Shown here: positions 8,301-47,296 of the stretch, one piece after another
Position numbering within the stretch: position 1 is the first letter of the stretch
Layout of the letters: each line of letters starts with the position of its first letter
Source of the DNA: Octopus sinensis
Taxonomy: Eukaryota
Length of the DNA: 64,000 nt
Assembly (NCBI RefSeq): GCF_006345805.1
Contig: NC_043000.1
Coordinates: 74,090,001 to 74,154,000, forward strand
Direction: 5' to 3'
The notes under the pieces: model-generated
Told to the model about the DNA's origin: nothing
The model's input: only the letters and a program-made list of their open reading frames with translations
Database searches by the model: none
Position numbers and translations under genes: made by a program

Positions 8301-8736
8301 GATTACATATATATATAAATATATTAGCATTAAAGACCTGTCATTGCCGGGTCATAGTGCTAGTGCATGTATATATATGTATTTATTAGTGTACATATTA
8401 CATGTACATCTATATATATACATCTACACATAAAATGCAAAATACAAAGTTATATCTTGATATCGCTAGTGATAACAATACTCAAAATATATAACAGACT
8501 GGAATTGTTTTATTACAACCCACAAGGGGCGAACACAGAGGGGACAATACAACCTGATGTGGGGTCAGATTCTCGAATGGGGTTACAAAAAAGATGAGAT
8601 TAAAAATTCACAACAATACAAAAATATAAAATCGAATGAAGAACAGACCGGAAGACATTACGGATGGAGTGGGGGCGGGTTTAGCTCGAACCGCACGAGC
8701 CCCGCCTCACCACTGATACTTTGGTTTCGTCTTGTT

Positions 8737-11518
8737 TTACTTTCGTGCTACATCCTTCCATCGTTCTTCATACACTTCCTTAGTCAGGCATTTTCTCTCC
8801 GGCCCTATCTTCCTTTTTAGGTGAAAGATGAAGTAATTCATCAATCCAGGGCTGGAGATGAACTTGCCTGACCGTAAACCTTTCATCCTAGTCTTCCAAA
8901 TCACCTCTCTTGCAATTGCTACTACAACGAGAAAACAATTCTTGCCTTCTTTTGCGAGGAAATCTGGTGGGTCAATTTTTATAATAGACTCAGTCGACAG
9001 CTGTACTCTTCGTGTGCTTGACAACAGCTGTTCGGCATAAACCCACACCTCAGACACGACCGAGCAATGAACAATAGCGTATGGGACGGTTTCCCTATCC
9101 CGCCCGAATCTTGGACATATCGGACTGCCTTTCCACCGTGCCTTGCGAATCAGGGCAAAGAACGACGGATAGGCGGTAGGTGATAACCGATGCGATAAAC
9201 ACATTGGCTACCTCCGCCCTTCCTTTCAGGGATAGCCACCGCCAAGACCAGGTCTTGGCTACTGCAGCCACCCTGCTCGATACCTCGCCCCAATTCTTCT
9301 CTATTTGGAGGTCTGGTCCAAACCAAACCCCTAGCAACTTAATCGGACCCTCCGTCCAACGTCCCACGACGCTGTCAGGAGGCATCGACTTGCCTCTCCA
9401 GGTGCCGAGCTGCAAGCCGACTGACTTTTCACGATTAACCTGTCACCGTCTCGTAAACCTCTTTGGCCTTGCCTACCCTCTGTAGGTGATCCATTTCGGT
9501 TACGATGATGGTGATGTCATCCCATCCGCGTAAGCTGACACCGATTTTCCACAACCTGGCTGTCTCGGGATGCCGCTCAGTTTTCGCAGTAATGGCTCAA
9601 GAGCCACCACGTACAAAAGCGGGGAGAGCGGACACCCTTGACGAACCGAGCGCTTGATATTGAACGGCTTCGAAAAGAAGCCGTTCACCCGAACTACCGC
9701 GTCGATGTTATCGTAAATTTGAATAATCCACCTGAAGAAGCCAAGGCCCAGCCCGAACTGTGCCAGAACGGACACCAGGTAGCGATGGTCGACCCTATCA
9801 AATGCTTTAGATAGGTCTAAATGAATCAGTGCTCCACCCTTGCCAGAATCACTATTAAACCCCTCTATAGTGTACCGCATAAGATGGAGATTATCCTGTT
9901 TGGTTCTGCCGGGAACGGCACATGTCTGTGCCTCCCCGATCAGACCATCCGCGACACATTTTGGCCAAAATCTTCAACTCTGTGTTTAGCAGAGTGATGG
10001 GCCTGAAATTATCAATGCATTCTCCCTTGTTCGGGTCCTTTCTGACAAGCGTCACTACTCCCCGGCGCACAGATCTGGGAATGAACCCGTTCTGCTGCCA
10101 GTTCGCATAGACCTCGTCAGTAGCTGCCCGAACAAGTCTGGCATACTCTTATATAAGTCATAGGGTAGACCATCCAAACCCGGCGCCCTGCCCGCGCCGC
10201 AGTCCACCATTGCCTCAACCACCTCCTCAGGCGTGATTGGCCCTTCACATCTCGCCCCGATAGTAAAGTCCCTCCTCCTATCCGGTCCGCCGCCCACACC
10301 GAAAAGCTGAGCGAAGTGCTCCTGAAAGGCCTCACACATCTCCTCCGGTTCGTTTATCAACTCACCTTGTTCGTTCGTCAAAGATCGAATCGTGGGGTCA
10401 TTACCACGCTGAGCTTCCACCACTCGGGGACATCTCACGGCGTTGATTCCTTCACAACCCATTGCGCGGATCCTAGCCCTGACAATGCAGTCCATGTGTT
10501 TGGCCTCGAGGTGCTGGTTTAACGCCAGTCTCTTGGCCTTCACGTGAGCCGCAGAGCCAGTTTTCAAGGCTTCCTCTAATTCCTTAACTAGAGTTGATTC
10601 CCTCCTAGCCTCTCTAGCCACTAATCCTATGCTATATCTAATAGTCTCGAATTTGATGACTCGCTTGAGGGCATACCACCATTTGTTATCAATGATGGCA
10701 CCAGATAGCGCCCTCTGGATTATAGTCCTAATCCGGTCTCTGTACTCCTTAATCGCCAAAAGGGGCGTATTAAGTTTCCAATAACCGGAGCCTCTATTAT
10801 TAGCCTTATCTATGTCAAGCTTACAGGTGACCATTTTATGATCACTGTAGCTAACCGGGTAAAACTGTGGACACTTAGCTATTTCTCTGTCTACTTTTCT
10901 AATTAGTATCCTCTCTATGTATGACCTGGAAGATCCATCGCTGCTTGACCATGTCCACAATGGAGCGTTCGGAAATTCCAACCTATAAGGATCTGCTAGC
11001 TCAAAGCGGCTTAGCAGTTCCAGGAAGCCAATGTTACCTTTTCTATCTGGACGCAAGCCAACACAATCTACATCCGCTTTGCAAATTGTGTTAAAGTCTC
11101 CTAGCACAACTAATGAATGCGAAGTACCAAGAAAGTTTTCCAGTTCTCGAAAATAATCACTTTGCCCTTTTTGGTTGGGTGCGTAAATCGCAACCAGTCT
11201 GATAACTTTACCGTTACTGAACGTCAAATCCATGACGACCAGCCTACCTTCTGGGTCTGAAAAAATTAACTTTTTCTCAAAAACCCGGTTTTGTTTTAAT
11301 AAGACCAACACCCCACCCCCGCCGGTAGGACTGGCCGGAGAGAAAAAACTCTCGTAGCCGTCGAACAGCGGGAGCAGACCTCTTGTCCCCTCTAACCGGG
11401 TTTCTGTAGCAACAATGACATCCAAATTACGCGACCTGATATCATTAAGGAAACGACCTTGTTTCCCGTTTGATCCCAGGCCGCGCACATTTAAACAACC
11501 AACATAAATGTAATCCAC
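8737..11518 (-). pseudogene. Tx1-like ORF2 (APE endonuclease, RT, C-terminal Zn finger), disrupted
   Basis: LNVRGL, GDFN, SDH, GYWKLN, PGLDGLP, SKAFDRV, RQGCPLSP and YAD motifs spread over several frames. Confidence 0.9.
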
Positions 11519-11531
11519 GGCTTACCTTATA

Positions 11532-12877
11532 TCAGTGGTTCGACTTGTTCGTCTTCTTCTTCTTCATTTTTTCCCTCTTTTTCCGGGCTCGTGGGGGAGG
11601 CCGACGTAGGCCCTCGTATATATATGGAGATATGTCCATTCTCAGAGGGCCCACGTCGTGAAAGAATTCGGACTTTATCCGTCCGTAATCCTTCCGGCCT
11701 TTCGTTTTTTTAATTTTTTCCACCTTTGCCATAGCTGCCAAAACGTTAATCAACCTGTTGTTGGCTGCCTTAATGGCCATAAATGTATTCGTAGTTTCTT
11801 TTCTTTTTTTTTTGGCTCACTTTCAGAGTGGTGGTTTCTGTTTTCCGTTTATTCATGGTGATTTTTGACCACCCCTCCTCTTTTTCCTTTTCTTCGCCGC
11901 TTGTTGTTTCTGTTGCTTCTTTTTTTTTCTGTTGATACTATTGTTTCTGTAGTTTCTGGTGTTTTCGCTTCTGGTTTTTCCTTTTCTGGCGGTGCTGCTA
12001 CCTGCGGTTTAGGTTGGCACTCCGCTCTCACGTGCCCCTTTTTACCGCAGCCAAAACACCTCGGCTTTCTGCCCTCCACAAACACTATCACCCTCTCCTC
12101 TTCGTTGATCTTCAACGTCTCCGGAATTTCTTCCAACGTCTGTACCTCCGCCTGTATCGCCATTGAGATGCATTGGCCTTGCCAATACTCCTCCTCCTCT
12201 ACTGTAGCCTGGAGGATAGTGATCTTGTCCTCCAGGCCTAACATCACTGCCGCCACCAGACATGTGGCGTCTGTCTCTGGGGGAATGTTGTTTATTTTGA
12301 TCTTCGAGGTCCTTCTGCCTCTGTACAGGGGGAGGAGGACTATATTTTCCGCTTTTAGAGGTTCACTTGATAGCTTCTTAGCTATATCTTCTGTCCTGAA
12401 CCTCACTTCTACCGTTCCGAATTTTCTTCCACGGTTTATGTAGGTGATGTCCTGCCATATTGTCTTCAGACAACACTCGATTTTCTTCTCTTCCACTCTT
12501 TGAATGGTTTTCATCGTCGTATTATACGTTTTGTAAATTACCCTTCTTTTATCCACTTCCTCTGTCTTGCTGACGTCCGGTATTACTGTCACTTCATTAC
12601 CTTCCTTTTTCAAACATGCTGCATATTTTTCCAGGTTGCTTCTTTCAGTGTTAATTTTTTCCAGTTTTTTGCCCGCAACCCCTGAAAACTTCTTAGTAGG
12701 GGCTTCTCCTGCTTTCGGCAACACCGCCGGTGAGCTTTCTTCACCTGATACAGGTGAATAGGAAATAGTGGTATCCATCTCTGGATGTGGCTTAACAAGC
12801 CTTTCAATTGGCTTTAACAAGCCTTCAAAAAATCCTGGCTTCGCAAGCCTTTTGTGTGTATTTTTAAATTGTTCCAC
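11532..12877 (-). pseudogene. Tx1-like ORF1 (Zn knuckle CFGCGKKGHVRAEC), frameshift near 11850
   Basis: ORFs 11849-12877 and 11532-11780. Homologous to the ORF1 at 33633-34909. Confidence 0.85.
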
Positions 12878-13046
12878 AATAATTCCCCCGCCGGGGGGGG
12901 GGGATTTTAATACGTAGCCTTCGCGCGAAGGCTAATAACAGTTTTTACACAAAAGACACAATATATAAAACACAGTAACAGAAATTATATTAACAAACCG
13001 GTAATAATCAGCAATCGACAAAACAGACTGGCGTATAACAGACTGG

Positions 13047-14788
13047 AATGATTTTTTTATTTACCATAAAGGTTAACACAGAGATGGACAACACACCCGG
13101 GGAACTTAAAATAAGAAACCAAATGACAAGAAAAGGAAAAAATAAAAGCAATAATGAAATATGAAAGAATATTTACAATGAGATGTAAATGTCCACTCGA
13201 TCCCCGGAATCAAGAGGTTACATTTTCGTCAGTTTTTTCACATATATTTCACCAAATTTTTTCTTTTTTTTTTTTTTCTCCTCACAATCTTACACATATT
13301 CTATGATTGTTTCCACTTCTCTGAAGTCCATCACTGAATCCGCAGGTAGCCGCTCTCTCATTCGAACCTTCGTGAAAAATATTACATTTTCCCCGGCAGC
13401 TTTGAAGAACTCAGCGGCTACTTCCTCGGGGATTAGAGCAGTCCCCTCCCACCGGTCGGTCATCCTGTTGATCCATACATGTCCCTCCGTTTCAGTTGTT
13501 ACATCGGTCATTTCAGGGCAGAGTAATCCCGCTTCCGTCCTGTATTTTCCTTCATCTTCCCTTTCGGGCTTATTTCTTCCTTGTTCTCCTCTCTTTGTTT
13601 CTCTCTTTCTCTCTTTTTGCCTTCTTTTCTTTCACCTTCCTTCTCTTGTCTTTTTGGCTCTTTTTCTGTTTTCTCTTTATCTCGTACTTTATGTTCCTTT
13701 CCTGTAGTTTCTTTTTCCTTTTGTGTACCGTCTTTTCTTTTCGCTTGACTCTGTTCTTTGTCTTGTTTTTTCCCTGTTGTTTCTCTTTCCTTTTTTTCTC
13801 TTGACTTTGTTTTGGTTCTATTAATTCCTTTTCTTTTATTTCTTTTTCCTTCATTGACTTATTATTTTCTTTCTCTTGTTGTTTTGTTTCCTTTTCTTTG
13901 CTTTCTTTCTCATTTAATGTATTATTCTTTTCCTCAAGTTCCTTTTCCTGTTCACACTCCGCTACGAATTCATATAACGGGCACTCCTTTTTAATGTGCC
14001 CCCTTGTCCCACACAAGTAACAATTAGGTTTTCTCCCCTCTACGATTGCGCTGAGAGTATTTTCGTCTTCCACCTCTATTCTGTAGGGAAACCTTTCAAT
14101 GTCTTCTGTTGTGGCCAACAGCCACAATTCCACCCCCATATCCTTTCCAGTTCATCACGTTTGACTCCTTAATCGATTCCACCTCCACTTCCTCTTCTGC
14201 TGCTCCTAGAATGGCTGTTGCCAACCATGTTCGGGATTTTAACTCGAACCCCTCTTCTTCCCTTGTATGAGGGCCACATTGTAAATTTGTCCGCTCTTAG
14301 TACGGTGGTAGCCAGCGAGGCTGCAATTTCCTCCGTTGCACAACTCACCTCCACCGTACCAAATTTCTTGCCTCTACTCACATAGGTAATTTTTTTCCAT
14401 TATGTCTCCCAGACATTTCTCAATTTCGTCTATCTCTATTCTTGCCAGTTTCCTTGTATTCCTGTCTTGAGTTCTATATGTCACCGTCTTGTTTTCTTTA
14501 TCCTCTTTTGTTTTCGCGGGGGGGATTAGCTTCACCCTATCACCCTCCCTTTTGAAAAGCTTTTCATATTCTTTGAGTTTCTCCTTCTCAAAGAACACCT
14601 CCCTTACAATTAGCGACGAATCGCTTTTTTTTCCGGTGACCCCCGCGTAAGTCGCCATGACTAGTGGGTCAATTCACCTTCTTCAAAAGGTTTCAACACG
14701 TGGAGGCAAACGCCTCGCGCGATACCAAATCAATTCACACACAGAAAAAATTCACCGTCTTATCACAACTAACAACACCCGAACAATT
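13047..14788 (-). mobile_element. ORF1-only non-autonomous Tx1 derivative (HAL1-like), family C copy 1
   Basis: ORF1 pieces 13290-14658 with CYLCGTRGHIKKEC and a K/E-rich tail. No ORF2. Own 3' UTR with AATAAA. Confidence 0.85.
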
Positions 14789-14798
14789 AACAGACTGG

Positions 14799-16553
14799 AA
14801 TGATTTTTTTTATTTGCCATAAAGGTTAACACAGAGATGGACAACACACCCGGGGAACTTAAGATAAGAAAGCAAATGACAAGAAAAGGAAAAAATTATA
14901 AGTAATAATGAAATATGAAAGAATATTTACAATGAGATGTAAATGTCCACTCGATCCCCGGAATCAAGAGGTTACATTTTCGTCAGTTTTTTCACATATA
15001 TTTCACCAAATTTTTTCTTTTTTTTTTCTTTTTTTTCTCCTCACAATCTTACACATATTCTATGATTGTTTCCACTTCTCTGAAGTTCATCACTGAATCC
15101 GCAGGTAGCCGCTCTCTCACTCGAACCTTCGTGAAAAATATTACATTTTCCCCGGCAGCTTTGAAGAACTCAGCGGCTACTTCCTCGGGGATTAGAGCAG
15201 TCCCCTGCCACCGGTTGGTCATCCTGTTGACCCATACATGTCCCTCTGTTTCAGCCGCTACATCGGTCACTTCAAGGCAGAGGTGGTAGGTTATCAATCT
15301 ATAACAGTAGCAATCCCGCCTCCGTCCCGTACTCTCCCTCATACTCCCCTTCGGGCCCACCTCTTCCCTGCTTTCCTCTCCTTGTCTCTCTCCCTCTCTC
15401 CCCCTGCCCTCCTCTCCTTCACCCTCCTTCCCCCATCCCTCCGGCTCCTCCTCTGCTCTCTCCCCATCTCACACTTCACGCTCCCCTCCTGCAGCTTCCC
15501 CTTCCTTCCGCGTACCTTCCCTTCCCTTCGCTTGACTCCGCTCCTCGTCCTGTCTCTTCCCTGCTGCTTCTCCTTCCCCCTCCTTCTCTTGACTCTGTCT
15601 TGGCTCCACCGATTCCCCTTCTTCCACTTCTTCCTCCTTCACTGACTTATTATTTCCCTTCTCCTGCCGCCCCGCTTCCCTTTCCTTGCCCTCCCTCTCA
15701 TCCAATGCACTATTCCTCTCTTCAACTTGCCCCCCCTGCTCACACTCCGCAACAATTGGGCCCCCTCCCATCCACGATTACGCTGAGGGTCCCCTCGTCC
15801 TCCACCTCCATTCTGTAGAGAAACCCCTCAATGTCCTCTGCTGCGGCCAACAGCCACACACAATTCCACCCCACATCCCTCCCAGCTCCCCACGCTTGAC
15901 TCCCCAATCGATTCCACCTCCACCTCCTCCGCCGCCGCTCCCAGAATGGCTGCTGCCAACCATTCATTTTCAACTTCTGGGGTCATGTTCGGGATTCCAA
16001 CTCAAACCCCTCCTCCTCCCCTGTGTGAGGGCCACACTGTGAACTTTTCGACTCCCAGCACGGTGGTATCCAGCGAGGCTGCAACTTCCTCCGTTGCACA
16101 TCTCACCCCCACCGCACCAAACTTCTTGCCTCCACTCACATAAGTCATTTTTCCCATCATGTCTCCCAGACACCTCTCGACCTCCTCTATCTCCACTTCC
16201 GCCAGCTTCCTTGCACTCCTGTCTTGGGTTCCACATGTCACCGTCTTGCCCTCTCTATCCTCCTTTGCTTTCGCGGGGGGGGGGGGGGGACCAGCCTCAT
16301 GCTATCACCCTCCCCTTCGAAAAGCCTTTCATACTCTTTGAGCCTCTCCCTCCCAAAGAACACCTCCCCTACAATCAGCGACGAATCGCTTCTCCCTCCG
16401 GCGACCCCCGCGCAAGTCGCCATGACTAGAGAGCAAATTCACCCTCTTCAAAAGGTTCCAACACGTGGAGGCAAACGCCTCGCGCGATACCAAATCAACT
16501 CACACACAGAAAAAATTCACCGTCATATCACAACCAACAACACCCGGACAATT
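14799..16553 (-). mobile_element. ORF1-only element, family C copy 2, A-to-G hypermutated
   Basis: Collinear with 13047-14788. The 3' ~430 bp is near-identical and the remainder has dense plus-strand T>C changes. Confidence 0.9.
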
Positions 16554-19500
16554 AACAGACTGGAATTGTTTTATTACAACCCACTAGGGGCGAACACAGA
16601 GGGGACAATACAACCTGATGTGGGGTCAGATTCTCAAATGGGGTTACAAAAAAGATGAGTTTAAAAATTCACAACAATACAAAAATGTAAAAACGAATGA
16701 AGAACAGACCGGAAGACATTACGGATGGAGTGGGGGCGGGTTTAGCTCGGACCCCACGAGCCCCGCCTCCCCACTGATACTTTGGTTTCGTCTAGTTTTA
16801 CATTTACGTGGTGTCATCCACTCGCAACTTTCGTGCTACATCTTTCCATCGTTCTTCATGCACTTTCTTAGTCAGGCATTTTCTCTCCAGCCCTATCTTC
16901 CTTTTTAGGTGAAAGATGGAGTAATTCATCAGTCCAGGGCCGGAGATGAACTTGCCTGACCGTAAACCTTTCATCCTGGTCTTCCAAATCACCTCTCTCG
17001 CAATTGCTACAACAACGAGAAAACAATTCTTACCTTCTTTCGCGAGGAAATCTGGTGGGTCAATTTTTATAATAGACTCAGTCGACAGCTGTACTTTTCA
17101 TGTGCTTGACAACAGCTATTCGGCATAAACCCACACCTCAGACACGACCGAACAATGAACAATAGCGTGTGGGACGGTTTCCCTATCCCGCCCGAATCTT
17201 GGACATATCGGACTGCCTTGGCCACCGTGCCTTGCGAGTTTATCCCGAACAGGTAGAGCTCCTCTGTAACAATGCCGTGCCAGAGACTTTTGGAAGTTGT
17301 CCAGGCTCTTTGGCCCGAATGTACGTTGGAACAGACTGGCCAGCTGATTATCGTCGAGACCTAGGGCTTCCTCCAAGGTATCTTCACATTCCGCCTCTAC
17401 CAACCCTCTATAAAAGAATGTGGTGGAACCCCCACCGGAGGCGTTGTCCGAGCGACAGAATAGCAGGAGAGCCTTGCGACACTCCGTGTACCATGTGCCC
17501 AGTTTCGATCTACGATTCAGCCAGGTTTCCCATCCACCGAAACTAGTGAACTTGGGAAACATCAGTTTTGCTAGCGGAGACCACACCCGTTCACCATCCA
17601 GGTAGAGCCGCAGATGCCTTAACCACAGCGCATGTCTGCGCATCATCAGCCAAGGAATCCCTAGCCCACCATTTAACGGTTGTTGACAGCAAGTAGAGCG
17701 TTTCACAAGTGGTTTCCCGCCCTTCTCCAAAAAGTAGAAGAGCTGTCTTTCCAACTTGATCAACCACGAATCAGGGCAAGGAACGACGGATAGGCGGTGG
17801 GTGATAACCGATGCAATAAACACATTGGCTACCTCCGCCAAGACCAGGTCTTGGCTACTGCAGCCACCCTGCTCGATACCTCGCCCCAGTTCTTCTCTAT
17901 TTGGAGGTCTGGACCGAACCAAACCCCGAGCAACTTAATCGGACCCTCCGTCCAACGTCCCACGACGCTGTCTGGAGGCATCGACTTGCCTCTCCAGGTG
18001 CCGAGCTGCAAGCCGACTGACTTTTCACGATTAACCTTTGCTCCTGTTACCGTTTCGAAAACCTCTATGGCCTTGCCTACCCTCTGTAGGTGATCCATTT
18101 CGGTTACGATGATGGTGATGTCATCCGCGTACGCTGACACCGATTTTCCACAACCTGGCTGTCTCCGGATGCCGTTCAGTTTTCGCAGTAATGGCTCAAG
18201 AGCCATCACGTACAAAAGCGGGGAGAGCGGACACTCTTGACGAACCGAGCGCTTGATGTTGAACGGCTTCGAAAAGAAGCCGTTCATCCGAACTACCGAG
18301 TTGATGTTATCGTAAATTTGAATAATCCACCTGAGGAAGCCAAGGCCCAACCCGATCTGTGCCAGGACGGACACCAGGTAGCGATGGTCGACCCTATCAA
18401 TTGCCTCACCCTTGCCAGAATCACTATTAAACCCCTCTATAGTGTAACGCATAAGATGGAGATTATCCTGAATGGATCTGCCGGGAACGGCACATGTCTG
18501 TGCCTCCCCGATCAGGCCATCCGTGACACGCGCCAATCTTTTCGATAACACTTTGGCCAAAATCTTCAACTCTGTGTTTAGCAGAGTGATGGGCCTGAAA
18601 TTATCAATGCACTCCCCCTTGCTCGGGTCCTGTCTAACAAGTGTCACTACTCCCCGGCGCACAGATCTGGGTATGAACCCGTTTTGCTGCCAGTTCGCAT
18701 AGACCTCCGTCAGTAGGTGCCCGAACAAGTCTGGCAAACTCTTACGTAACTCGTAGTTAGTATCCTATCTAATTAGTATCCTATCTATGTATGACCTGGA
18801 AGATCCATCGCTGCTTGACCGTGTCCACAATGGAGCGTTCGGAAATTCCAACCTATAAGGATCTGCTAGCTTAAAGAGGCTTAGCAGTTCCAGGAAGCCA
18901 ATGTTACCTTTTCTATCTGGACGCAAGCCAACACAATCTACATCCGCTTTGCAAATTGTGTTAAAGTCTCCTAGTACAACTAAGGAATGTGAAGTACTAA
19001 GAAACTTCTCCAGCTCTCGAAAATAATCACTTTGCCCCTTTTGGTTGGGTGCGTAAATTGCAACCAGTCTGATAACTTTACCGTTACTGAACGTCAAATC
19101 TATGACGACCAGCCTACCTTCTGGATCTGAAAAAATTAACTTTTTCTCAAAAACCCGGTTTCTTTTTAATAAGACCAACACCCCACCCCCGCCGGTAGGA
19201 CTGGCCGGAGAGAAAAAACTCTCGTAGCCGTCGGACAGCGGGAGCAGACCTCTTGTCCCCTCTAACCGGGTTTCTGTAGCAACAATGACATCCAAATTAA
19301 CCGACCTGATATCATTAAGGAAACGACCTTGTTTCCCGCTTGATCCCAGGCCGCGCACATTTAAACAACCAACATAAATGTAATCCATAGCTTACCTTAT
19401 ATCAGTGGTTCGAGTTTTTCTCCTTCTTCTTCACTTTTTTCTTTTTCCCGGACTCGTGGGGGAGTCTGACGCAGGCCCTCGTATATATATGGTGAAGATA

Positions 19501-27610: not shown

Positions 27611-27666
27611 CAATGAAACTGGACTTGTTTTATTATTACCCACAAAGGGCGAACATAGAGGGTACA

Positions 27667-28417: not shown

Positions 28418-29904
28418 TTAAATCAGTTCCATTACCTTTCTCAGGTCGTTGTAATTTTCCATCTCTCGTGGGTATCTTAGCAGTCGGCACTTCGCATGCC
28501 TTATTACGTTCACACCGGCGGCATCGATAAACGCATCGGCGCTGTCTTCATGGACCAGTGCACCCGTTTCCCTCCACTCCGTGCCCATCCTGACCCATGA
28601 ATATCCCTCTGTTTCACTTATTAATTCCTCCATCTCCCCACAGTGTCTGTAATGAACCAATGTTCCATAAAATTTATACCTTCTATTTGAACCTATGTTC
28701 TCTTTAGTTTTCCTCTTCGGACCTACTTCTTCTTTACCTTCCTCTCTCAGTTATTCTCTTTCTCTCTTTTTGCTTTCCTTTTCTTTTTCCTTCTCTTGTC
28801 TTTTTGGCTCTTTGTCTGTCGTATGTTCTTTTCCTGTTTTTCTTTTTCTTTTTGTGTAACATCCTTTCCTTTCTCTTGATTCTGTTCCTTCTCTTGTTTT
28901 TTTCCTGTTTTTTCTCTTTCCGTTATTTTACTTTCTTTTTCTTTCTCTTGATTTTGTTTTGGTTCTTTCTCTATTACTTCTCTACCCTGTGGCTTTTGTT
29001 CTTTTTCTATTAATTTCTTCCCTTTGATTTCATTTTTCTTCCGTGTATTGTTATTTCCTTTTACCGTTGTTTCCTTTTCCTTGTTTTCTTTCTCCTTTAG
29101 TGTATTGTTCCTTTCTTCGGGTTCTTTTTCCTTCTCTTCTTTGTTTTCCTCTGCTCTTTCACACTCCGCCATAAATTCGTATAGCGGACATTCTTTTTTT
29201 ATGTGTCCTCTTGTCCCACACAAGTAGCAGTTAGGTTTCCTCCCCTCCACGATTACGCTGGGGGTTTTTCCATCTTCTACTTCTATTTGGAAGGGAATCT
29301 GTTTTATATCTCTGTTTGTGGCAGTCAGCCACATCTCTACCCCGAATCCCTTCCATTTCACTATGTTGGTCTCCTTTATCGACCCAATTTCTATCTCTTC
29401 CTCAGCTGACCCTAGGATGGCTGTTACCAGCCATTCTGTCTTCAATTCTGGGGGTATATTTGGGATTTTGACCCGTACCCCTCTTCTCCCTTTGTAAGTA
29501 GGCCACATGATAAAGTTTTCGGCTCGGAGTACGGTGGTAGCTAGCGAGGCCGCAACTTCCACCGTACCATATTTCTTGCCTTTGCACACAAAGGTTGCCT
29601 TCTTCATTACGTCGTCCAGACATTTTTCGATCTCTTCTATTGCTATTCTTGATAGCTTTCTTGTGATCTTGTCTTGTGTTCTATAAATTATTGTCTTGTC
29701 TTCATTTTCCTCCTTTGCTTCAGCAGGAGGGACCAGTTTCACGCTGTCACCCTCCCTTTCAACGAATTTCTCAAACTCTTTTAGCTGTTCTTTTTTGAAG
29801 AACACTTCTCTTACTGTAAGCGACGTATCGCTTTTCATTGCGGCGACCCCCGCGTAAGTCTCCATGACTTGAGGGTCGGCACACCTTCTACAAAAAGGTT
29901 GCAA
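28418..29904 (-). pseudogene. ORF1 protein of the ORF1-only element (Zn knuckle, K/E-rich region, distinct C-terminal domain)
   Basis: 385-aa ORF plus downstream 80-aa ORF. Homologous to 13290-14658. Confidence 0.8.
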
Positions 29905-30390
29905 CGCGCAGCGGCAAACGCCTCGCGCGATTCAATTTTCAATTTCTATACACAAAAATTACTAACTACTTAACGCAATCAATGAAACTGGACTTGTTTT
30001 ATTAATACTCACAAGGGGCGAACATAGAGGGGACAATACAACCTGATGTGGGGTCAGATTAACGGATGGGATTACAAAAAAGGTGAATTTAAAAATTTAC
30101 AAAAATGACAAAATAGCAAAAAATCGAATGAAGAACAGACCGGAAGACATTACGGATGGAGTGGGAGCGGGTTTAGCTCGGACCCCACGAGCCCCGCCTC
30201 CCCACTGATACTTTGGTTTCGTCTAGTTTTACATTTATGTCGTATCATCCACTCGCAACTTTCGTGCTACATCTTTCCATCGTTCTTCGTACACTCTCTT
30301 AGTCAGGCATTTTCTCTCCAGCCCTATCTTCCTTTTCAGGTGAATGAAGTAATTCATCAAACCAGGGCCGGAGATGAACTTGCCTGACCG

Positions 30391-32943
30391 TTAAGCTTTC
30401 ATTCTCGTCTTCCATATCACCTCTTTCGCAAATGCTACTACAACGAGAAAACAATTCTTACCTTCTTTCGCGAGGAAATCTGGTGGGTCAATTTTTGTAA
30501 TAGACTCAGTCGACAGCTGTACTCTTCGTGTGCTTGACAACAGCTGTTCGGCATAAACCCACACCTCAGACACGACCGAACAATGAACAATAGCGTGCGG
30601 GACGGTTTCCCTATCCCGCTCGCATCTTGGACATATCGGACTGTCTTGGCCACCGTGCCTTGCGAGATTATCCCGAACAGGTAGAGCTCTTCTGTAGCAT
30701 TGCCATGCCAGAGACTTCTGGAAGTTGTCCAGTGTCTTCGGCTCGAACGTACGTCGGAACAGACTGGCCAGCTGATTATCGTCGAGACCTAGGGTTTCCC
30801 CCAAGGTATCTTCACATTCTGCCTCTACCAACCCTTTATAAAAGAATGTGGTGGAACCCCCACCGCAGGCGTTGCCCGAGCGACAGAATAGCAGGAGAGC
30901 CTTGCGACACTCCGTGTACCATGTGCCCAGTTTCAATCTACGATTCAGCAAGGTTTCCCATCCACCGAAACTAGTGAACTTGGGAAACATCAGTTTTGCT
31001 AGCGGAGACCACACCCGTTCACCATCCAGGTAGAGCCACAGATGTCTTAACCTCAGCGCATGTCTGCGCATCATCAACCAAGGCATCCCTAGCCCACCCT
31101 TTAACGGTTGTTGACAGCAAGTAGAGCGTTTCACAAGTGGTTTCCCGCCCTTCCACAAGAAGTAGAAGAGTTGTCTTTCCAACTTGATCAACCACGAATC
31201 AGGGCAAGGAACGACGGAAAGGCGGTAGGTGATAACCGATGCGATAAACACATTGGCTACCTCCACCTTCCCTTTCAGGGATAGCCACCGCCAAGACCAG
31301 GTCTTGGTTACTGCAGCCATCCTGCTCGATACCTCGCCCCAATTCTTCTCTATTTGGAGGTCTGGTCCAAACCAAACCCCTAGCAACTTAATCGGACCCT
31401 CCGTCCAACGTCCCACGACGCTGTCAGGAGGCATCGACTTGCCTCTCCAGGTGCCGAGCTGCAAGCCGACTGACTTTTCACGATTAACTTTTGCTCCTGT
31501 TACCGTCTCGTAAACATCTATGGCCTTGCCTTTCCTCTGTAGGTGATCCATTTCGGTTACGATGATGGTGATGTCATCCGCATACGCCGACACCGACATT
31601 CCACTACCTGGCTGTCTCCGGATGCCGCTCAGTTTTCGCAGTAATGGCTCAAGAGCCACCATGTACAAAAGCGGGGAGAGCGGACACCCTTGACGAACCG
31701 AGCGCTTGATATTGAACGGCTTCGACAAGAAGCCGTTCACCCGAACTACCGAGTCGATGTCGTCGTAAATTTGGATAATCCACCTGAGGAAGCCAAAGCC
31801 CAGCCCGAACTGTGCCAGGGCAGATACCAGGTAGCGATGGTCGACCCTATCGAATGCTTTAGATTGGTCTAAATGGACCAGTGCTCCACCCTTGCCAGAA
31901 TCACTATTAAACCCCTCTATAGTGTACCACATAAGATGGAGATTATCCTGAATGGTTCTGCCGGGAACGGCACATGTCTGTACCTCCCCGATCAGACCAT
32001 CCGCGACACGCGCCAATCTTTTCGATAACACTTTGGCCAAAATCTTCAACTCTGTGTTTAGCAGAGTGATGGGCCTGAAATTATCAATGCACTCCCCCTT
32101 GCTCGGGTCCTTTCTGACGAGTGTCACTACGCCCCGGCGCACAGATCTGGGTATGAACCCGTTCTGCTGCCAGTTCGCATAGACCTCCGCCAGTAGCTGC
32201 CCGAACAAGTCTGGCATACTTTTATATAACTCATAGGGTAGACCATCTAAACCCGGCGCCCTGCCCGCGCCGCAGTCCGCCATCGCCTCAACCACCTCCC
32301 CAGGCGTGATTGGCCCTTCACAGCCCTCCGCATCTTGCCCTGATAAGCGCGGCAGCCCGTCGAGGAGGTCCGTAAAGGCCCTCCTCCTATCCAGTCCGCC
32401 GCCCTCATCGAAAAGCTGAGTGAAGTGCTCCTGAAAGGCCTCACACATCTCCTCGGGCTCGTTTATCAACTCACCTTGTTGGTTCGTCATAGATCGAATC
32501 GTGGCGTCGTTACCACGCTGAGCTTCCACCACTCGGGCCCATCTCACGGCGTTGATTCCTTCACAACCCATTGCGCGGATCCTAGCCCTGACAATGCAGC
32601 CCATGTGTTTGGCCTCGAGGTGCTGGTTTAACGCCAGTCTCTTGGCCGTCACCTGAGCCGCAGAGCCAGCTTTCAAGGCTTCCTCTAATTCCTTAACTAG
32701 AGTAGATTCCCTCCTAGCCTCTCTAGCCACTAATCCTATGCTATATCTAATAGACTCGAATTTGATAGCTCGCTTGAGGGCATACCACCATTTGTTATTA
32801 ATGATGGCACCAGATAACGCCCTCTGAATTATAGTCCTAATCCGGTCTCTGTACTCCTTAATCGCCAAAAGGGACGTATTAAGTTTCCAATAACCGGAGC
32901 CTCTGTTTTTAACCTTATTTATGTCAAGCTTACAGGTGACCAT
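30391..32943 (-). CDS. Tx1-like ORF2 reverse transcriptase portion, 850 aa open (EN part upstream is frameshifted)
   Basis: NFRPITLLN, DQSKAFDRV, RQGCPLSP, YADD, GGLG, CPRC-x8-H-x4-C. Confidence 0.9.
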   Translation of the reverse strand: MVTCKLDINKVKNRGSGYWKLNTSLLAIKEYRDRIRTIIQRALSGAIINNKWWYALKRAIKFESIRYSIGLVAREARRESTLVKELEEALKAGSAAQVTAKRLALNQHLEAKHMGCIVRARIRAMGCEGINAVRWARVVEAQRGNDATIRSMTNQQGELINEPEEMCEAFQEHFTQLFDEGGGLDRRRAFTDLLDGLPRLSGQDAEGCEGPITPGEVVEAMADCGAGRAPGLDGLPYELYKSMPDLFGQLLAEVYANWQQNGFIPRSVRRGVVTLVRKDPSKGECIDNFRPITLLNTELKILAKVLSKRLARVADGLIGEVQTCAVPGRTIQDNLHLMWYTIEGFNSDSGKGGALVHLDQSKAFDRVDHRYLVSALAQFGLGFGFLRWIIQIYDDIDSVVRVNGFLSKPFNIKRSVRQGCPLSPLLYMVALEPLLRKLSGIRRQPGSGMSVSAYADDITIIVTEMDHLQRKGKAIDVYETVTGAKVNREKSVGLQLGTWRGKSMPPDSVVGRWTEGPIKLLGVWFGPDLQIEKNWGEVSSRMAAVTKTWSWRWLSLKGKVEVANVFIASVITYRLSVVPCPDSWLIKLERQLFYFLWKGGKPLVKRSTCCQQPLKGGLGMPWLMMRRHALRLRHLWLYLDGERVWSPLAKLMFPKFTSFGGWETLLNRRLKLGTWYTECRKALLLFCRSGNACGGGSTTFFYKGLVEAECEDTLGETLGLDDNQLASLFRRTFEPKTLDNFQKSLAWQCYRRALPVRDNLARHGGQDSPICPRCERDRETVPHAIVHCSVVSEVWVYAEQLLSSTRRVQLSTESITKIDPPDFLAKEGKNCFLVVVAFAKEVIWKTRMKA

Positions 32944-33632
32944 TTTATGATCACTGTAGCTGACCGGCTAAAACTGTGGACACTTAGCTATTTTTCTGTC
33001 TACTTTTCTAATTAGTATCCTATCTAAGTATGACCTGGAAGATCCGTCGCTGTTTGACCATGTCCACAATGGAGCGTTCGGAAATTCCAACCTATAAGGA
33101 TCTGCTAGCTCAAAGCGGCTTAGCAGTTCCAGGAAGCCAATGTTACCTTTTCACGCAATCCAACACAATCTACATCCGCTTTGCAAATTGTGTTAAAGTC
33201 TCCTAGCACAACTAATGAATGCGAAGTACCAAGAAAGTTTTCCAGTTCTCGAAAATAATCACTTTTCCCTTTTTGGTTGGGTGCGTAAATCGCAACCAGT
33301 CTGATAACTTTACCGTTACTGAACGTCAAATCCATGACGACCAGCCTACCTTCTGGGTCTGAAAAAATTAACTTTTTCTCAAAAACCCGGTTTCTTTTTA
33401 ATAGGACCAACACCCCACCCCCACCTGTAGGACTGGCCGGAGAGAAAAAAACTCTCGTAGCCGTCGAACAGCGGGAGTAGACCTCTTGGCCCCTCTAACC
33501 GGGTTTCTGTAGCAACAATAACATCCAAATTACGCGTTGATATCATTAAGGAAGCGACCTTGCTTCCAGCTCGATCCCAGGCCGCGCACATTTAAACAAC
33601 CAACATAAATGTAATCCATGACCTACCTTATA

Positions 33633-34909
33633 TCAGTGGTTCGACTTTTCCTTCTCTTCATTTTTTCCCTCTTTTTCTGGGCCTCGTGGGGGAGTCTGAC
33701 TCAGGCCCTCGAATATATATGGTGATGATATATCCATTCTGAGAGGGCCCACGTCATGAAAAAATTCGGACTTTATCCGTCCGTAATCCTTCCGGCCTAT
33801 TCTATACAATATGAAATCATTTCTCCTTCCAATTTTTTCTACCTTGGCCATAGCTGCCAACACATTACCGAGTCTATTATTTGAGGCCTTAATGGCCATA
33901 AATGAGTTTAAAGTCTCTCTTTTTTTCTTTTGGTTTACTTTCGGAGGGGTGGTTTCAGTTTTTCTTTTTTTCCTAGTGATTTTTGACCACCCCTCCTCAT
34001 TTTTCGTTTCCTCCGCCGCCGGTTCCGCTGCCTCTGTCACCTCCACACCTTCAGCCGTCCCTTCTGGGCCGCCCGGCGCTGCTTCTGGTAACACCTCTTC
34101 TGTTCTTCCACCTGGCTGAGCTGCTTCCTGCGGTTTGGGTTGGCATTCTGCCCTTACATGCCCTTTCTTACCGCAGCCGAAGCACCTCGGCTTTCTGCCC
34201 TCTACAAAGACTGTGACTCCTTCCTCTTCACTGATTTTCAGTGTCTCCGGAATCTCTTCCAGGGTTTGTATCTCTGCCTGGATGGCCATCGTTATACGCT
34301 GCCCCTTCCAACCTTCTTCCTCCCCTACTGTGGCCTGGAGGATGTTTATTTTTTCCTCCAGGCCTACCATAACTGCTGCCACCAGACATGTGGCGTCCGC
34401 TTCTGGCGGAACATTGTTCATTGTTATCCTTGAGGTTCCTTTGCCTCTATACAAGGGGAGGAGAACAATATTCTCCGCTTTCATGGGTTCCATGGATAGC
34501 TTTTTGGCTACTTCCTCCGTCTCAAATCTCACCTCCACTGTGCCGTATTTCTTCCCGCGGTTGATGTACGCAATTTTATCCCATATCGGTTTCAGGCAGT
34601 TTTCCATCTTTTTCTCCTCTATTCTCTGTATAGACCTACTTGTGATGTTGAAAGTCTTGTATATTATTCTTTTTTTTATCAATCTCTTCCTGCTTTTGGG
34701 CATTCGCAACCACCGCTACTTCTGTGCCCTCCTTTATCAAACAGTCTGCGCATTTCTGCAGGTTCTCAGTGTTAATTTTTTCAATTTTCTTCCCAGCTAC
34801 TTCAGAAAATCTTCCAGCCGGTGCTGGGGCTTCCTCTTTCTTCGGCGACACCGCCGGTGATCCTGCATCACTTGACACGGGTGAATAGGAGATGGGGGAG
34901 TCCATCTCC
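33633..34909 (-). pseudogene. Tx1-like ORF1, family A
   Basis: MDSPISYSP start and CFGCGKKGHVRAEC knuckle. Frameshift near 34700. Confidence 0.85.
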
Positions 34910-35153
34910 GAAAACTGGCTTAACAAGCCCCTAGCACAACCGCTACAAAAAGTTTTTGGTTTTGCAAGCCTCAAATGCAGCAATAATGATAGTTTTTCCC
35001 CCACGGAGGGGGGAACACCAACACGAAGCCCTCGCACGAAGGCTGATTACAATAATTGTACAACAACAGACAATACAAAGTCAACAGTACTTCAAAAACA
35101 CAGTAGAATATAAAAGAGGAAAATATAATAACTCACTACGCAATGAAAAATGG

Positions 35154-38100
35154 ACTTGTTAGCTCTTATTTCTTTATTCACCATACGGTTATACATATAA
35201 AGACAGAACATCACGAATGATTTTACGTCAATATGTGTTGGGGTCTATTAAAAATTTACAAATGATTATATAATTCGGATGATAGGACATTTTTTACACA
35301 AACAATTTCACAGATGGAATGGGGCGGGCTTACGGACCCCACGAACCCCGCCCCGACACTGATCTTAGGTTTTTTTTTTTCCTTTTTTTTCCGGCTTACC
35401 TCGCATTCATGAGGGTCCTTTTACTCACAACATTCTTCCATCTTTCATCGAACACTTTCTTACTCAGGCCCCTCCTCTCTAGTTCTATTTGTCTTTTTAG
35501 GTGGAATTTAAAATGTTCCACCAGACTAGAACCAGAGATGAAGTTGCCTGCTATCACCCCTTTCATCCTCGTCTTCCATACTGCCTGTTTCGCAATTGAA
35601 ACCACAGAGAGAAAACAATTCTTACCTTCTTTCGTTAAGAAATTCGGTGGGTCAATTTTTACAATGGATTCAGTCGATAGCTGTACTCTTCCTCCACTTG
35701 ACAACAGTTGTTCGGCAAAAACCCACATGTCTGCCACTTCCGAGCACTGCACGACCGCGTGCGAGACGGTTTCCCTGTCTCGCCCACACCGCGGACAGGT
35801 CGGGCTGACTTGGCCACCGTGCCTTGCGAGTTTATCCCGAACAGGTAAGGCTCCTCGGTAACACTGCCAAGCTAAGGACTTCTGAAAATTATCCAGGGTC
35901 CTCGGCCCAAATGTACGTTGGAACAGACTGGCCAGCTGATTATCGTCGAAACCTAGGGTTTCCCCTAACGTATCATCGCAACCGGCCTCTACAAACCTTC
36001 TATAGAAAACAGCGGTAGACCCACTGCCGCAGGCATTGCCCGAGCGACGGAATAGTCGGAGTACCTTGCGACACTCCGTATACCATGTATCCAACTTCGA
36101 TCTGCGATTATACCAGGCTTCCCGTCCACCAAAACTGGTGAACTTGGGAAGCATCTGTTTCGCCAACGGAGACCACACCCGTTCACCATCCAGATGGAGC
36201 CACAGATGCCTTAACCTCAGCGCATTTCTGCGCATCATTAGCCACGGCATCCCTAGTCCACCCTTTAACGGTTTTTGACAACAAACAGAGCGTCTCACAA
36301 GTGGTTTCGAGTTCTTCCACAAAAAGTGAAAGAGCTGTCTTTCCAACTTGGTCAACCACGAATCCGGACAAGGCACGACGGTAAGGCGGTAGGTGATCAC
36401 CGATGCGATGAACGCATTGGCTACCTCCGCCCTACCTTTCAGGGATAACCACCGCCAAGACCAGGTCTTGGCTACTGCAGCCACCCTGCTCGATACCTCG
36501 CTCCAGTTCTTCTCTATTTGGAGGTCTGGTCCGAACCAAACCCCGAGCAACTTAATCGGACCCTCCGTCCAACGTCCCACGACGCTGTCTGAAGGCATCG
36601 ACTTGCCTCTCCAGGTGCCGAGCTGCAAGCCGACTGACTTTTCGCGATTAACTTTTGCTCCTGTCACCGTCTCGTAAACTTCTATGGCCTTGCCTACTTT
36701 ACGTAGGAGGTCCACTTCAGTCACGATGATAGTGATGTCATCCGCGTACGCCGAAACCGACATTCCACGACCTGGCTGCCTCGGGATGCCACTCAGTTTT
36801 CGCAGCAGCGGCTCGAGAGCCACTACATACAAAAGCGGGGAGGGTGGGCATCCTTGACGAACCGAGCATTTGACTCTGAACGGCTTAGAAATAAAGCCGT
36901 TCACCCGAACTACCGAGTCGACGTTATCGTACATTTCGATGATCCACCTGAGGAAGCCAAGACCCAGGCCGAACTGAGCCAGAACAGACACCAGGTAATG
37001 ATGGTTGACCCTATCGAAAGCTTTTGATTGGTCTAAATGGACCACTGCCCCTCCCTTGCCGGGATCGCTATTAATTCCCTCTATAGTGTATCTAATTAGA
37101 TGGAGATTATCCCGAATGGACCTGCCAGGTACGGCACACGTTTGTGCCTTCCCTATTAGTCCATCCGCGACACGCGCCAATCTGTTCGATAACACTTTGG
37201 CCAAAATCTTCAGCTCTGCGTTAAGCAGAGTGATGGGCCTAAAATTATCAATGACATACCCCTTGTCCGAGTCCTTCCTGATTAGTGTCACCACTCCCCG
37301 GCGCCCAGATCTGGGAATAAACCCATTCTGCTGCCAGTTCGCGTAGACGTTCGCCAGTAAGTCCCCGAACAAGTCCGGCATACTTTTATAAAGCTCGTAG
37401 GGTAGACCATCCAGTCCTGGCGCCTTACCCGCGCCGCAGTCAGCCATGGCCTCTATTACTTCCCCAGGCGTGATCGGCTCCTCAATACACTTCGCGTCCT
37501 GCTCCGAGAGGCGCGGTAGCCCGTCAAGGAGGTCCGTTAGGTCCCTCCTCCTATCCGGTCCGCCGCTCCCCCCAAAGAGCCGGGCGAAGTGGTCCTGAAA
37601 AGCTTCACACATCTCCTCGGGCTCGTCTATCAACTTACCTTGTTGGTTCGTCAAAGATCGAATTGTGGCATCGTTGCCACGTTGGGCTTCCACCACTCGG
37701 GCCCATCTTGCGGCATTAATTCCTTCGCTCCCCATTGCACGTTGTCTAGCCCTGACAATGCAACCCATGTGTTTGGCTTCGAGGTGCTGGTTCAAAACCA
37801 GTCTCTTGACCTTCACCTGGGCTGCCGTGCCAGTTCGCATTGCTTCCTCTAAGTCCTTAACTAGTGCTGATTCCCTTCTAGCCTCTCTAGCTACTAGATC
37901 TATACTATATCTAATGGACTCATATCTGATGGCTCGCTTGAGGGCATACCACCATTTGTTGTTAATTATGGTTCCGGTCAAAGCCCTCTGAATCATTAAC
38001 CTTATCCTGTCACTGTACTCCTTAATCGCCAAAAGGGACGTATTAAGTTTCCAGTAACCAGGACCTCTATTCGTCTTATCTATGTCTAGCCTACAGGTGA

Positions 38101-38992
38101 CCATCTTGTGGTCACTGGAGCTGACCATGTGGAGCTGTGGACTCCTAGCTAGTTTCTTATCTACTTTTCTAATTAATATCCTGTCTATGTATGACTTGAT
38201 AGATCCGTCGCTATTTGACCATGTCTACAATGGAGGGTTCGGATGTTCCAGTCTATATGGATCTACCAGCTCGAAACGTCTTAGTAGATCCTGGAACCAA
38301 GCATTTCCTTTCCTATCTGTTCGCGAGCCCTCACAGTCTACCCGCACATCGTAGACTGTGTTGAAGTCTCCTAAAACAACTAAAGGATGCGATGTACTCA
38401 GAAACTTTCCAAGGTTCCGAAAATAATCACTTTGTTCCCCTTGACTGTGGGGTGCGTAAACCGCAACCAGCCTGATTGTCTTACGACTACTGAACGTCAA
38501 ATCAACGACGACCAGTCTGAAAAAATCAACTTTTTCTCAGAAACCCGGTTCTTTTTACACTGGACCAACACACCGCTTCCGCCGGACGAACGGCTCGGAG
38601 AGATAATTCCCTCGTAACCGCCGAGCAGCGGGAGCAGATTTCTTTGCCCCTTTAATCAGGTTTCTGTGGCAACAACATCTAAATCTCGTGACCTGATGTC
38701 ATTTAGGAGGCGCCCTTGCTTCCAGTTCGACATCAGGCCACGTACATTTATACACCCTACATAAATACGAGACATTACCTACCTTTTAATATAAACATCG
38801 TATAAACATCGTGCAAGTCGAGACGCGGACCTCTGATGTCTTTTGGGTATTCCTCATGTATAATGTTGTAATTTAATCTGTCGATTTTACACACTTCTAC
38901 ATTTTTGAGCAATACCCTGTAAGTTTGAATTTTTTCTGCTGTTGGGGCTTCATTAATAAGTTTCACCAACCTATCGTTATCTTTGTTTATTT
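35154..38992 (-). mobile_element. Tx1-like family B, 5'-truncated within ORF1
   Basis: Highly similar to 22418-26100. Confidence 0.9.
35396..38128 (-). CDS. Tx1-like ORF2 RT portion, 910 aa open (EN N-terminus disrupted)
   Basis: SDH, GYWKLN, RQGCP, YADD and C-terminal CCHC. Confidence 0.9.
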   Translation of the reverse strand: MVSSSDHKMVTCRLDIDKTNRGPGYWKLNTSLLAIKEYSDRIRLMIQRALTGTIINNKWWYALKRAIRYESIRYSIDLVAREARRESALVKDLEEAMRTGTAAQVKVKRLVLNQHLEAKHMGCIVRARQRAMGSEGINAARWARVVEAQRGNDATIRSLTNQQGKLIDEPEEMCEAFQDHFARLFGGSGGPDRRRDLTDLLDGLPRLSEQDAKCIEEPITPGEVIEAMADCGAGKAPGLDGLPYELYKSMPDLFGDLLANVYANWQQNGFIPRSGRRGVVTLIRKDSDKGYVIDNFRPITLLNAELKILAKVLSNRLARVADGLIGKAQTCAVPGRSIRDNLHLIRYTIEGINSDPGKGGAVVHLDQSKAFDRVNHHYLVSVLAQFGLGLGFLRWIIEMYDNVDSVVRVNGFISKPFRVKCSVRQGCPPSPLLYVVALEPLLRKLSGIPRQPGRGMSVSAYADDITIIVTEVDLLRKVGKAIEVYETVTGAKVNREKSVGLQLGTWRGKSMPSDSVVGRWTEGPIKLLGVWFGPDLQIEKNWSEVSSRVAAVAKTWSWRWLSLKGRAEVANAFIASVITYRLTVVPCPDSWLTKLERQLFHFLWKNSKPLVRRSVCCQKPLKGGLGMPWLMMRRNALRLRHLWLHLDGERVWSPLAKQMLPKFTSFGGREAWYNRRSKLDTWYTECRKVLRLFRRSGNACGSGSTAVFYRRFVEAGCDDTLGETLGFDDNQLASLFQRTFGPRTLDNFQKSLAWQCYRGALPVRDKLARHGGQVSPTCPRCGRDRETVSHAVVQCSEVADMWVFAEQLLSSGGRVQLSTESIVKIDPPNFLTKEGKNCFLSVVSIAKQAVWKTRMKGVIAGNFISGSSLVEHFKFHLKRQIELERRGLSKKVFDERWKNVVSKRTLMNAR

Positions 38993-39189
38993 TTTATATT
39001 TACCTAGTTTCAATGGAATATATCCACTTGTTTTCAATAATAGAAATATTAAAATTAAAATGGAGCTGACCATGGCAGCGATTATTCTTATATCTATAAG
39101 AATGCCATATTAATATGGCGATAACAATTAATTTCCAGTAAACGCTGCCATAATCTCTTTTATAGAGACTTAGTAATTTTAATATTTCT

Positions 39190-40080
<891 letters not shown>

Positions 40081-41355: not shown

Positions 41356-41357
41356 AT

Positions 41358-41370: not shown

Positions 41371-41404
41371 AACGAATCAAGCGAACAGCATATCAAGAAT
41401 CAGC

Positions 41405-47277: not shown

Positions 47278-47296
47278 GCAGTTGGCTTTTGGGCAC

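Follow-up and report, generated by a model that had tools for sequence, protein, structure and literature searches.

How do retrotransposons of several families come to stand head to tail, unit against unit, at what appears to be a single site? The question is raised by a 64,000-nt stretch of Octopus sinensis contig NC_043000.1 (hereafter the window), in which eight long interspersed nuclear element (LINE) units follow one another on the minus strand from 8502 to ~38991 with no spacer at the junctions. An initial annotation had described the locus as a gap-free train of eight Tx1-like elements from three families, sharing one TCCAGT landing pad that is regenerated by target-site duplication. 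It is now well supported that the array grew by sequential independent insertions at one regenerated site used by several families; the fixed TCCAGT target has to be given up, the core common to all targets being CAGT at most.

Anatomy of the array

Unit order is read on the minus strand; the units and the features set within them are listed here.

8490..8501, minus strand: terminal target copy CAGTCTGTTATA, which opens the downstream flank
8502..13045, minus strand: E1, family A, full length (open reading frame 1 (ORF1) plus apurinic endonuclease (APE) and reverse transcriptase (RT)), decayed, with a 532-bp deletion
13022, minus strand: second CCAGTCTGTT, at the 5' end of E1
13046..14797, minus strand: E2, family B, ORF1-only and non-autonomous, with a CCHC knuckle and without ORF2
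14798..16562, minus strand: E3, family B, ORF1-only, A-to-G hyper-edited
16563..22416, minus strand: E4, family A, full length, with a 756-bp deletion and two nested inserts
20091..21066, strand not assigned: 976-bp insert in ORF1 of E4, resembling a long terminal repeat (LTR) with TG...CA-like ends, possibly a solo LTR
21326..21837, minus strand: 512-bp non-autonomous insert in ORF1 of E4, presumably Helitron-like from its end features (TC start, hairpin plus CTAG end, A/T site)
22417..27621, minus strand: E5, family C, full length; its 5' junction brings in the TTTCATTG variant
27622..29990, minus strand: E6, ORF1-only, with a B'-type ORF1 (open frame of 394 amino acids (aa)) and an A-type 3' tail
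27667..28056, minus strand: tRNA-type short interspersed nuclear element (SINE), 390 bp, in the 3' untranslated region (UTR) of E6, with a ~13-bp duplication
29991..35152, minus strand: E7, family A, full length, 858-aa open ORF2 stretch
35153..38991, minus strand: E8, family C, 5'-truncated in ORF1, 942-aa open ORF2 stretch, the least decayed unit

The count of eight units stands, although ORF2 is present in only five of them (E1, E4, E5, E7 and E8), the other three being ORF1-only. Identity between units is mostly 70–96%, and to differences of 4–30% are added private deletions and inserts. Members of family A (E1, E4, E7) are 87–89% identical among themselves and those of family C (E5, E8) 96%, with 71–79% between A and C; three families become four lineages once E6, 70% identical to E2, stands separately. 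Their order along the array, A-B-B-A-C-B'-A-C, has no repeat period. The train is gap-free at its junctions but not within its units, where three inserts (512 and 976 bp in E4, the 390-bp SINE in E6) contribute 1,878 bp of foreign DNA.

Junctions that change with position

Each junction, on the minus strand, consists of AATAAA, 7–21 nt, CAGT (seven cases) or CATT (one), 6–11 nt, and then the 5' end of the next unit, neighbouring units being joined by target copies of 10–16 bp or more. All eight junction motifs located by the initial annotation proved to be in place. Its formula of AATAAA...TCCAGT captures a motif that recurs at this spacing far beyond chance, but at 35141 the motif is TCCATT, TCCAGT being found at the other seven. 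The duplication around the first element is likewise real and spans 16 bp (4 nt before CAGT, 12 from CAGT onward) rather than 13. From CA onward, the exact bases common to neighbouring junctions number 12, 10, 15, 14, 4, 13 and 2 for E1 to E7, that is, 10–15 bp at five of seven units; E8 has no target copy at its upstream end.

What follows CAGT depends on position and not on family, as had been noticed from the start: the units with CTGTTA behind them are E1–E5, of families A, B, B, A and C, and those with TT(T)CATTG are E6–E8, of B', A and C. The third base before CAGT is T in E1–E4 and G in E5–E8, a weak pattern for which, with five tail lineages, chance is estimated at ~7%. TTTCATTG is E5's own 5' sequence; it is lacking in the downstream flank and present at the upstream junctions of E6 and E7, so these two units were most simply inserted after E5 and upstream of it. 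E5 was also considered as a recombinant of two arrays, and showed no change point against E8.

Dating of the copies, which had been proposed as a check, can be approached through private amino-acid changes per otherwise invariant codons. By this measure E8 is the least decayed unit (6/596, vs 24/485 in E1, 29/477 in E4 and 26/615 in E7; P<=5e-4), without a monotonic trend along the array.

A second cluster in a Gypsy LTR

A second and independent target site lies beside the array in the window, inside a Gypsy element (40629–53142) that is flanked on both sides by a 4-bp CATA duplication and whose LTRs differ at 8/556 compared sites.

40629..41355, plus strand: Gypsy 5' LTR with TG...CA ends, the empty-site control
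40785, plus strand: TATAAATA (TATA box)
40815, plus strand: GCAGTT (A at 40817)
40920, plus strand: AATAAA
41358, plus strand: primer-binding-like site
45961..47278, plus strand: F1, 5'-truncated C-lineage LINE in the Gypsy 3' LTR
47279..52707, plus strand: F2, full-length C-lineage LINE
52708..53142, plus strand: remainder of the 3' LTR (R-U5), which resumes at CAGTT

Because the two LTRs of the element represent one occupied and one empty allele, and F2 is flanked by a duplication of 19 bp (1 mismatch) beginning at the LTR GCAGTT, both the second target and its duplication can be read directly. The tails of F1 and F2 both meet the LTR at G/CAGTT, while at the 5' junction of F1 about 40 nt of LTR are gone, TATA box included. 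Both clusters end upstream in a truncated unit, beyond which the target has been lost. The U5 part of the Gypsy element also contains a 45/89-bp tandem repeat.

These two insertions bear on what is recognized. F1 and F2 are 90–92% identical to E5 and E8 in ORF2, yet the two sites share only CAGT: the LTR insertions are located at GCAGTTGGC and pass over a TCCAGT 140 nt off. Within the window only 7 of 57 TCCAGT sites are used, and the 13 copies of CCAGTCTGTT comprise five junctions, the tag at the 5' end of E1, six unused copies in ORF2 and one elsewhere. A fixed target of either kind was rejected, with 50/57 and 7/13 copies unused. The unused ORF2 copies lie at 17330, 23188, 30758, 35922, 46510 and 51959, that of E1 falling within its deletion; recurrence of this junction 10-mer within ORF2 is probably due to chance.

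The LTR contains 10 CAGT sites (one of them the TCCAGT) and 9 BBCABW sites, and the TATA-linked CAGT is the one used, its A lying 32 nt past TATAAATA. Such an arrangement is rare: of the 483 CAGT sites in the window, 4 are preceded at -28 to -34 by a TATA box. An LTR transcript is expected to start about 32 nt from its TATA box, and BBCABW is the Initiator consensus; GCAGTT is thus the predicted transcription start of the LTR. With its filled and empty states, the LTR provides an exact site for testing whether a short word or a promoter is what the LINE endonuclease recognizes.

No small-RNA target came to light: the window has no tRNA, nor does any Rfam family match at gathering score, and scans of the flanks returned sub-threshold hits only. 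Neither array flank has a second copy in the window.

Related arrays in a sister clade

Of 42 loci yielded by a profile search, 40 belong to head-to-tail arrays, all on contigs of a single metagenome-assembled genome (G001); these contigs look like mis-binned animal DNA in their TA microsatellites and mobile elements. The assembly is nominally prokaryotic and includes many such animal-like contigs built of LINE arrays (C3–C15 and C17–C19, loci L002–L072). ORF2 of these elements is ~40% identical to that of E8, and in a tree of 46 rows, none dropped, built by a quick method, they form a clade with the window proteins (SH-aLRT, an approximate likelihood ratio test, 100) on a long stem.

Arrays in G001 are gap-free and head-to-tail with a period of 6.4–6.8 kb, and neighbours are mostly 98–100% alike. 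One anchor gave 41 distinct 3' ends, and with three further types found separately there are nine junction types, whose variants run in blocks along contigs. Families ~90% or more identical across ORF2 carry eight different junctions, the ninth belonging to a more distant family; separate contigs can share one type. Junction sequence is retained before 5'-truncated units in 3 cases. The contigs show ten array ends. Around one complete array stands an 18-bp duplication with 2 mismatches, corresponding to its internal junction; 454 bp upstream of another array its 16-bp site recurs unoccupied; and two downstream flanks open with 16 and 11 bases of their own array junction. With at least nine unrelated junctions in its sister clade, and with F1 and F2 at the LTR, the lineage cannot be assigned the one fixed TCCAGT target first proposed.

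Host-side sequence at these ends (20 nt) includes CAGT at 4/10, against a background of 6.3% (P=0.002), or at 3/9 (P=0.015) when one end with a possibly element-borne spacer, also seen as an element tag, is set aside. By inspection, CAGT is preceded by a TATA box at -28 to -34 in 0/6 upstream array ends. Taken together, the G001 data make the building of arrays, each with its private and regenerated junction, a property of the lineage, with a weak CAGT bias and no need of a TATA box.

Four G001 flanks have no second copy in the G001 assembly. Homology between the C-type junction of the window and a G001 junction was considered and dropped, 559/5000 shuffles scoring equally high. Several G001 types have a conserved donor-like AAAAGTAAGT ~35–45 nt from the 5' end, and near-identical ORF2 sequences are combined there with different, alternating ORF1 types. 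Beyond these loci, a metagenome scan gave one weak locus and a viral scan none; a search of sequencing runs found part of the stretch in 20/24 rows and half of it in none, with no RNA run among the matches listed.

A hyper-edited unit

E3 carries a record of its own passage through RNA. Over 1,695 columns aligned with E2, including 665 A positions, it shows 210 A-to-G changes, vs 9 G-to-A, 10 T-to-C and 9 C-to-T, other differences amounting to 3.1%; ~32% of A positions are changed. E6, taken as outgroup, carries A at 149 of the 210 sites and G at 36, which makes G the derived state in E3; the proportions are close to those that E6 shows where A is unchanged (332 A, 48 G). The base 5' of the edited position matters (9/149 after G, 149/247 after A, 28/48 after T; P 1e-31), and ADAR is a deaminase that disfavours editing after a 5' G. 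Edited positions span nt 28 to about nt 1440, leaving the final 320–380 nt unaltered.

The simplest reading would make E3 a retrotransposed copy of a double-stranded transcript that had undergone A-to-I hyper-editing. G-to-A editing of E2 and two-strand TpA mutation were considered as the cause of the E2/E3 difference and ruled out by polarity, strand bias and context. A partner for the double-stranded RNA was sought as an inverted family B copy, and none lies in the window. Editing clusters in other units come to two weak 300-column windows in family A, and none were found in 18 G001 loci of one type.

Dense changes of one type on one strand of a reverse-transcribed element recall the A-to-G hyper-edited avian retrovirus sequences attributed to ADAR (PMC12925331) and the G-to-A retroelements edited by APOBEC (PMC2873906), but, unlike those cases, E3 derives from a LINE and has been fixed in the genome of an invertebrate. 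Our literature search, with Repbase reports and subscription journals outside its scope, found no ADAR-edited LINE copies in a cephalopod genome. E3 indicates that ADAR-edited RNA can become fixed in the germ line, here in a group of animals noted for extensive RNA editing, and copies of its type could allow germ-line editing preferences to be read from DNA alone.

How the arrays may have formed

The explanation that we consider probable is re-use: a Tx1-like lineage that prefers a short word centred on CAGT would insert again at the site its own duplication has regenerated. A LINE of the L1 group with an APE-type endonuclease would begin target-primed reverse transcription at a loose, context-dependent word centred on CAGT, and its insertion would create a target duplication of 10–20 bp. 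Lying between one AATAAA tail and the 5' end of the next unit, this duplication would again be a usable site, on which later copies of any family of the lineage could stack, together with ORF1-only derivatives moved in trans. Most new units would have entered on the upstream side of the array, so that junction changes (T to G before CCAGT; TTTCATTG from the 5' end of E5) were copied into every junction further upstream. Growth would have stopped when a 5'-truncated unit (E8, or F1 in the second cluster) arrived with loss of the upstream target. Nick position, insertion order, movement of the ORF1-only units in trans and the basis on which a CAGT is usable are what we infer in this scheme, whereas the anatomy, the dependence of junctions on position, the second target with its empty allele and the sister-clade arrays are seen directly. 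Independent insertion itself follows from the divergence of the units by 4–30%, their private deletions and inserts, and the passage of E3 through RNA.

A number of observations weigh against this account. E5 and E7 are without a clean duplication (4 and 2 bp from CA onward). The 7–16 nt preceding CAGT also track the tail type of the upstream unit and may be element-borne. An empty site cannot be reconstructed for the main array from the window, as its upstream flank is a strong hairpin element and its downstream flank closes with a Helitron-like terminus. Decay is not monotonic along the array: by its 14/604 changes, E5 seems younger than E7 (26/615; P=0.08), and the difference between E5 and E8 is not significant (P=0.11). 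The measure itself is inflated by lineage divergence, F2 scoring 23/607 inside LTRs that differ at 8/556 sites. In G001, CA[G/T]T occurs within 30 nt in only 3/9 junction types, about the chance level; one complete array is without a clean flanking duplication (7/9 bases); and two identical truncated units indicate that tandem duplication also acts there.

Could it be the promoter rather than the word that is sought? The insertion complex might be led to RNA polymerase II Initiators (CA[G/T]T) and insert in the sense direction just behind them, so that the captured promoter drives transcription and the 5' end of each full-length unit becomes a new start site, hence arrays. F1 and F2 join exactly at GC-A(+1)-GTT, 32 nt past TATAAATA, despite the other CAGT and BBCABW sites of the LTR and the rarity of TATA-linked CAGT in the window; all eight array junctions fit BBCABW, and the change from CAGT to CATT preserves the Initiator. 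E1, E5 and F2 begin with short variable tags, that of E1 being the second CCAGTCTGTT, and TCAGTT, TCATTG and TCATTT junctions exist in G001. However, a promoter is visible at one site only, none of the six upstream G001 ends has the TATA box, 6/9 junction types lack CA[G/T]T, and an endonuclease favouring CAGT in open chromatin would look identical. We know of no LINE family with start-site-guided insertion, and the literature search found no Tx1-like LINE inserting at start sites. The idea is the bolder alternative, and an unlikely one. An extended version is speculative, and we would not expect it to be borne out: the lineage would be guided first to Initiators of other transposons (LTRs) and then to its own 5' ends, each arrival taking over the promoter and silencing its rival, with junctions recording the order of arrival and read-through of the stack feeding ADAR, whose edits would be written back to the germ line in E3.

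Classical Tx1 specificity, in which each subfamily reads a fixed 15–25 bp in a multicopy host repeat, would have A, B and C share one target (...AACAA[G/T]TCCAGT) and F move to the Gypsy LTR. Three tail types do converge on ACAA[G/T]TC or ATCATTC before CAGT, E5 and E8 have 16 extra nt with a like ending, one junction type occurs on separate G001 contigs, and transposon-aimed Tx1 families have been described, two of them at LTR elements (PMC4494074). This reading seems rather improbable in view of E5/E8 and F1/F2, which at 90–92% identity have only CAGT in common at their sites, of the near-identical G001 families with their eight junctions, and of array flanks that have no second copy in the window. 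Segmental or tandem duplication of a few units, which the initial annotation had named as the alternative, could be suggested by the adjacency of E2 and E3 in one family and by the 96% identity of E5 and E8. It is highly improbable and for the window refuted: private deletions and inserts, aperiodic family order and position-dependent, private junctions argue for separate insertions, the strand-specific editing that separates E3 from E2 means that this pair is not a DNA duplication, and identical junction-spanning blocks were looked for in the window and none found.

Under re-use of a regenerated CAGT-centred site, the reading we prefer, what is new is not stacking by target duplication, which is known, but that it crosses families, includes ORF1-only passengers and recurs in a sister clade of another animal. 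Cross-family stacking and sister-clade recurrence point to an array-forming lineage rather than to one fixed target.

Clade placement and ORF1-only derivatives

Array frames match Pfam zf-CCHC (ORF1) and Exo_endo_phos, RVT_1 and zf-RVT (ORF2), that is, an APE endonuclease, an RT and a C-terminal zinc finger, with no Pfam match for RNase H; each of the five ORF2-bearing units has all three ORF2 domains. The closest solved structures are L1 ORF2p (E 5e-52) and then R2 (E 1e-23), which places the elements in the L1 group and not among R2-type LINEs. The closest named protein is from Argonauta hians (58%), and no Tx1-named match is among the database matches for window ORF2. Membership in the Tx1 clade is plausible on this protein evidence. 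Window ORF2 proteins form their own well-supported clade in the tree, separate from L041, a more distant relative (28%) of another clade that is inserted in a U1 small nuclear RNA (snRNA) gene. The L041 positions concerned are 3036–3199 and 9961–10137, and a complete U1 gene precedes the element.

For E2, E3 and E6, tblastn detects ORF1 and no ORF2. Their ORF1 is 31–35% identical to the A-type ORF1 of autonomous neighbours and their 3' tails can be aligned with A and F tails, which makes them ORF1-only derivatives in the manner of HAL1. Common site and tail suggest that they were mobilised in trans by a partner ORF2p. A conserved 3' stem-loop was sought in the tails; 42/500 shuffles match its paired fraction and covariation is at chance level.

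The 5' UTRs of E1, E4, E7, E5 and F2 have conserved GC-rich hairpins ~100–150 nt from the 5' end, and in the same five, short variable tags precede a common GCG...GTGA motif. At +32 that of F2 has GTGAGT, which resembles a splice donor. In E2 and E3, downstream promoter elements at +28 were noticed by eye only.

Comparison with known systems

Several Tx1 elements aim at other transposons: Tx1L inserts in Tx1D, Tx1-Mar and SINEU-3 in Mariner-N4_AMi, and Tx1-8_Crp and Tx1-4_AMi in crocodilian LTR elements (PMC4494074). In the same paper (Kojima 2015), tandem SINEU-3 copies sandwich a duplication, and target preference is taken as one sequence type in >20% of flanks. The octopus elements resemble these as APE-RT LINEs preferring a site in another mobile element, forming tandems around a duplication, with non-autonomous partners at the same site and possible transcription from the flank. 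They differ in that four lineages (70–80% apart) share one stack, near-identical subfamilies occupy unrelated sites and the LTR site is the predicted start.

Double insertion is a general source of tandems (McGurk and Barbash 2018, PMC5932611). Drosophila R1 arrays share with this one repeated insertion, head-to-tail units and target duplication between them; R1 is a single family with identical 33-nt ribosomal DNA duplications, whereas several families and a drifting junction are seen here, with no rRNA, snRNA or tRNA target (PMC5932611). HAL1 is likewise a non-autonomous LINE derivative that kept ORF1 and the 3' tail and lost ORF2, although E2, E3 and E6 derive from the array lineage and not from mammalian L1 (PMC5753468). 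The telomeric HeT-A/TART/TAHRE arrays also mix autonomous and ORF1-only units head to tail in one orientation, but the units here have target duplications, an internal location and flanks on both sides (PMC5537684). Repeat annotation of Octopus vulgaris reports recently active L1-Tx1 families; its main text does not contain the terms "target site", "nested" or "editing" (PMC13282606).

Neighbouring features

Between an 830-bp (TA)n tract and E8, a strongly folding element of ~190 nt lies on the minus strand (39005–39192; 21-bp outer stem, nested hairpins, z -6.9). It has no Rfam match, and its form suggests a Helitron-like element or a miniature inverted-repeat transposable element. A Helitron was considered as host of the array from the Helitron-like ends of both flanks, which may instead be separate inserts. 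A 487-bp tandem repeat, 99% identical, occupies 904–3912 as two oppositely oriented blocks of 2.7 and 3.5 copies, bordered by (TA)n tracts. On the minus strand there follow a decayed Helitron Rep/helicase fragment (~4770–6700) whose end near 4770 is a hairpin, a truncated 3' fragment of LINE-like type with a (GAT)n end (7500–8300) and, beyond the second cluster, a decayed second Gypsy-type element (~54400–60000) with gag, RT/RNase H and integrase fragments.

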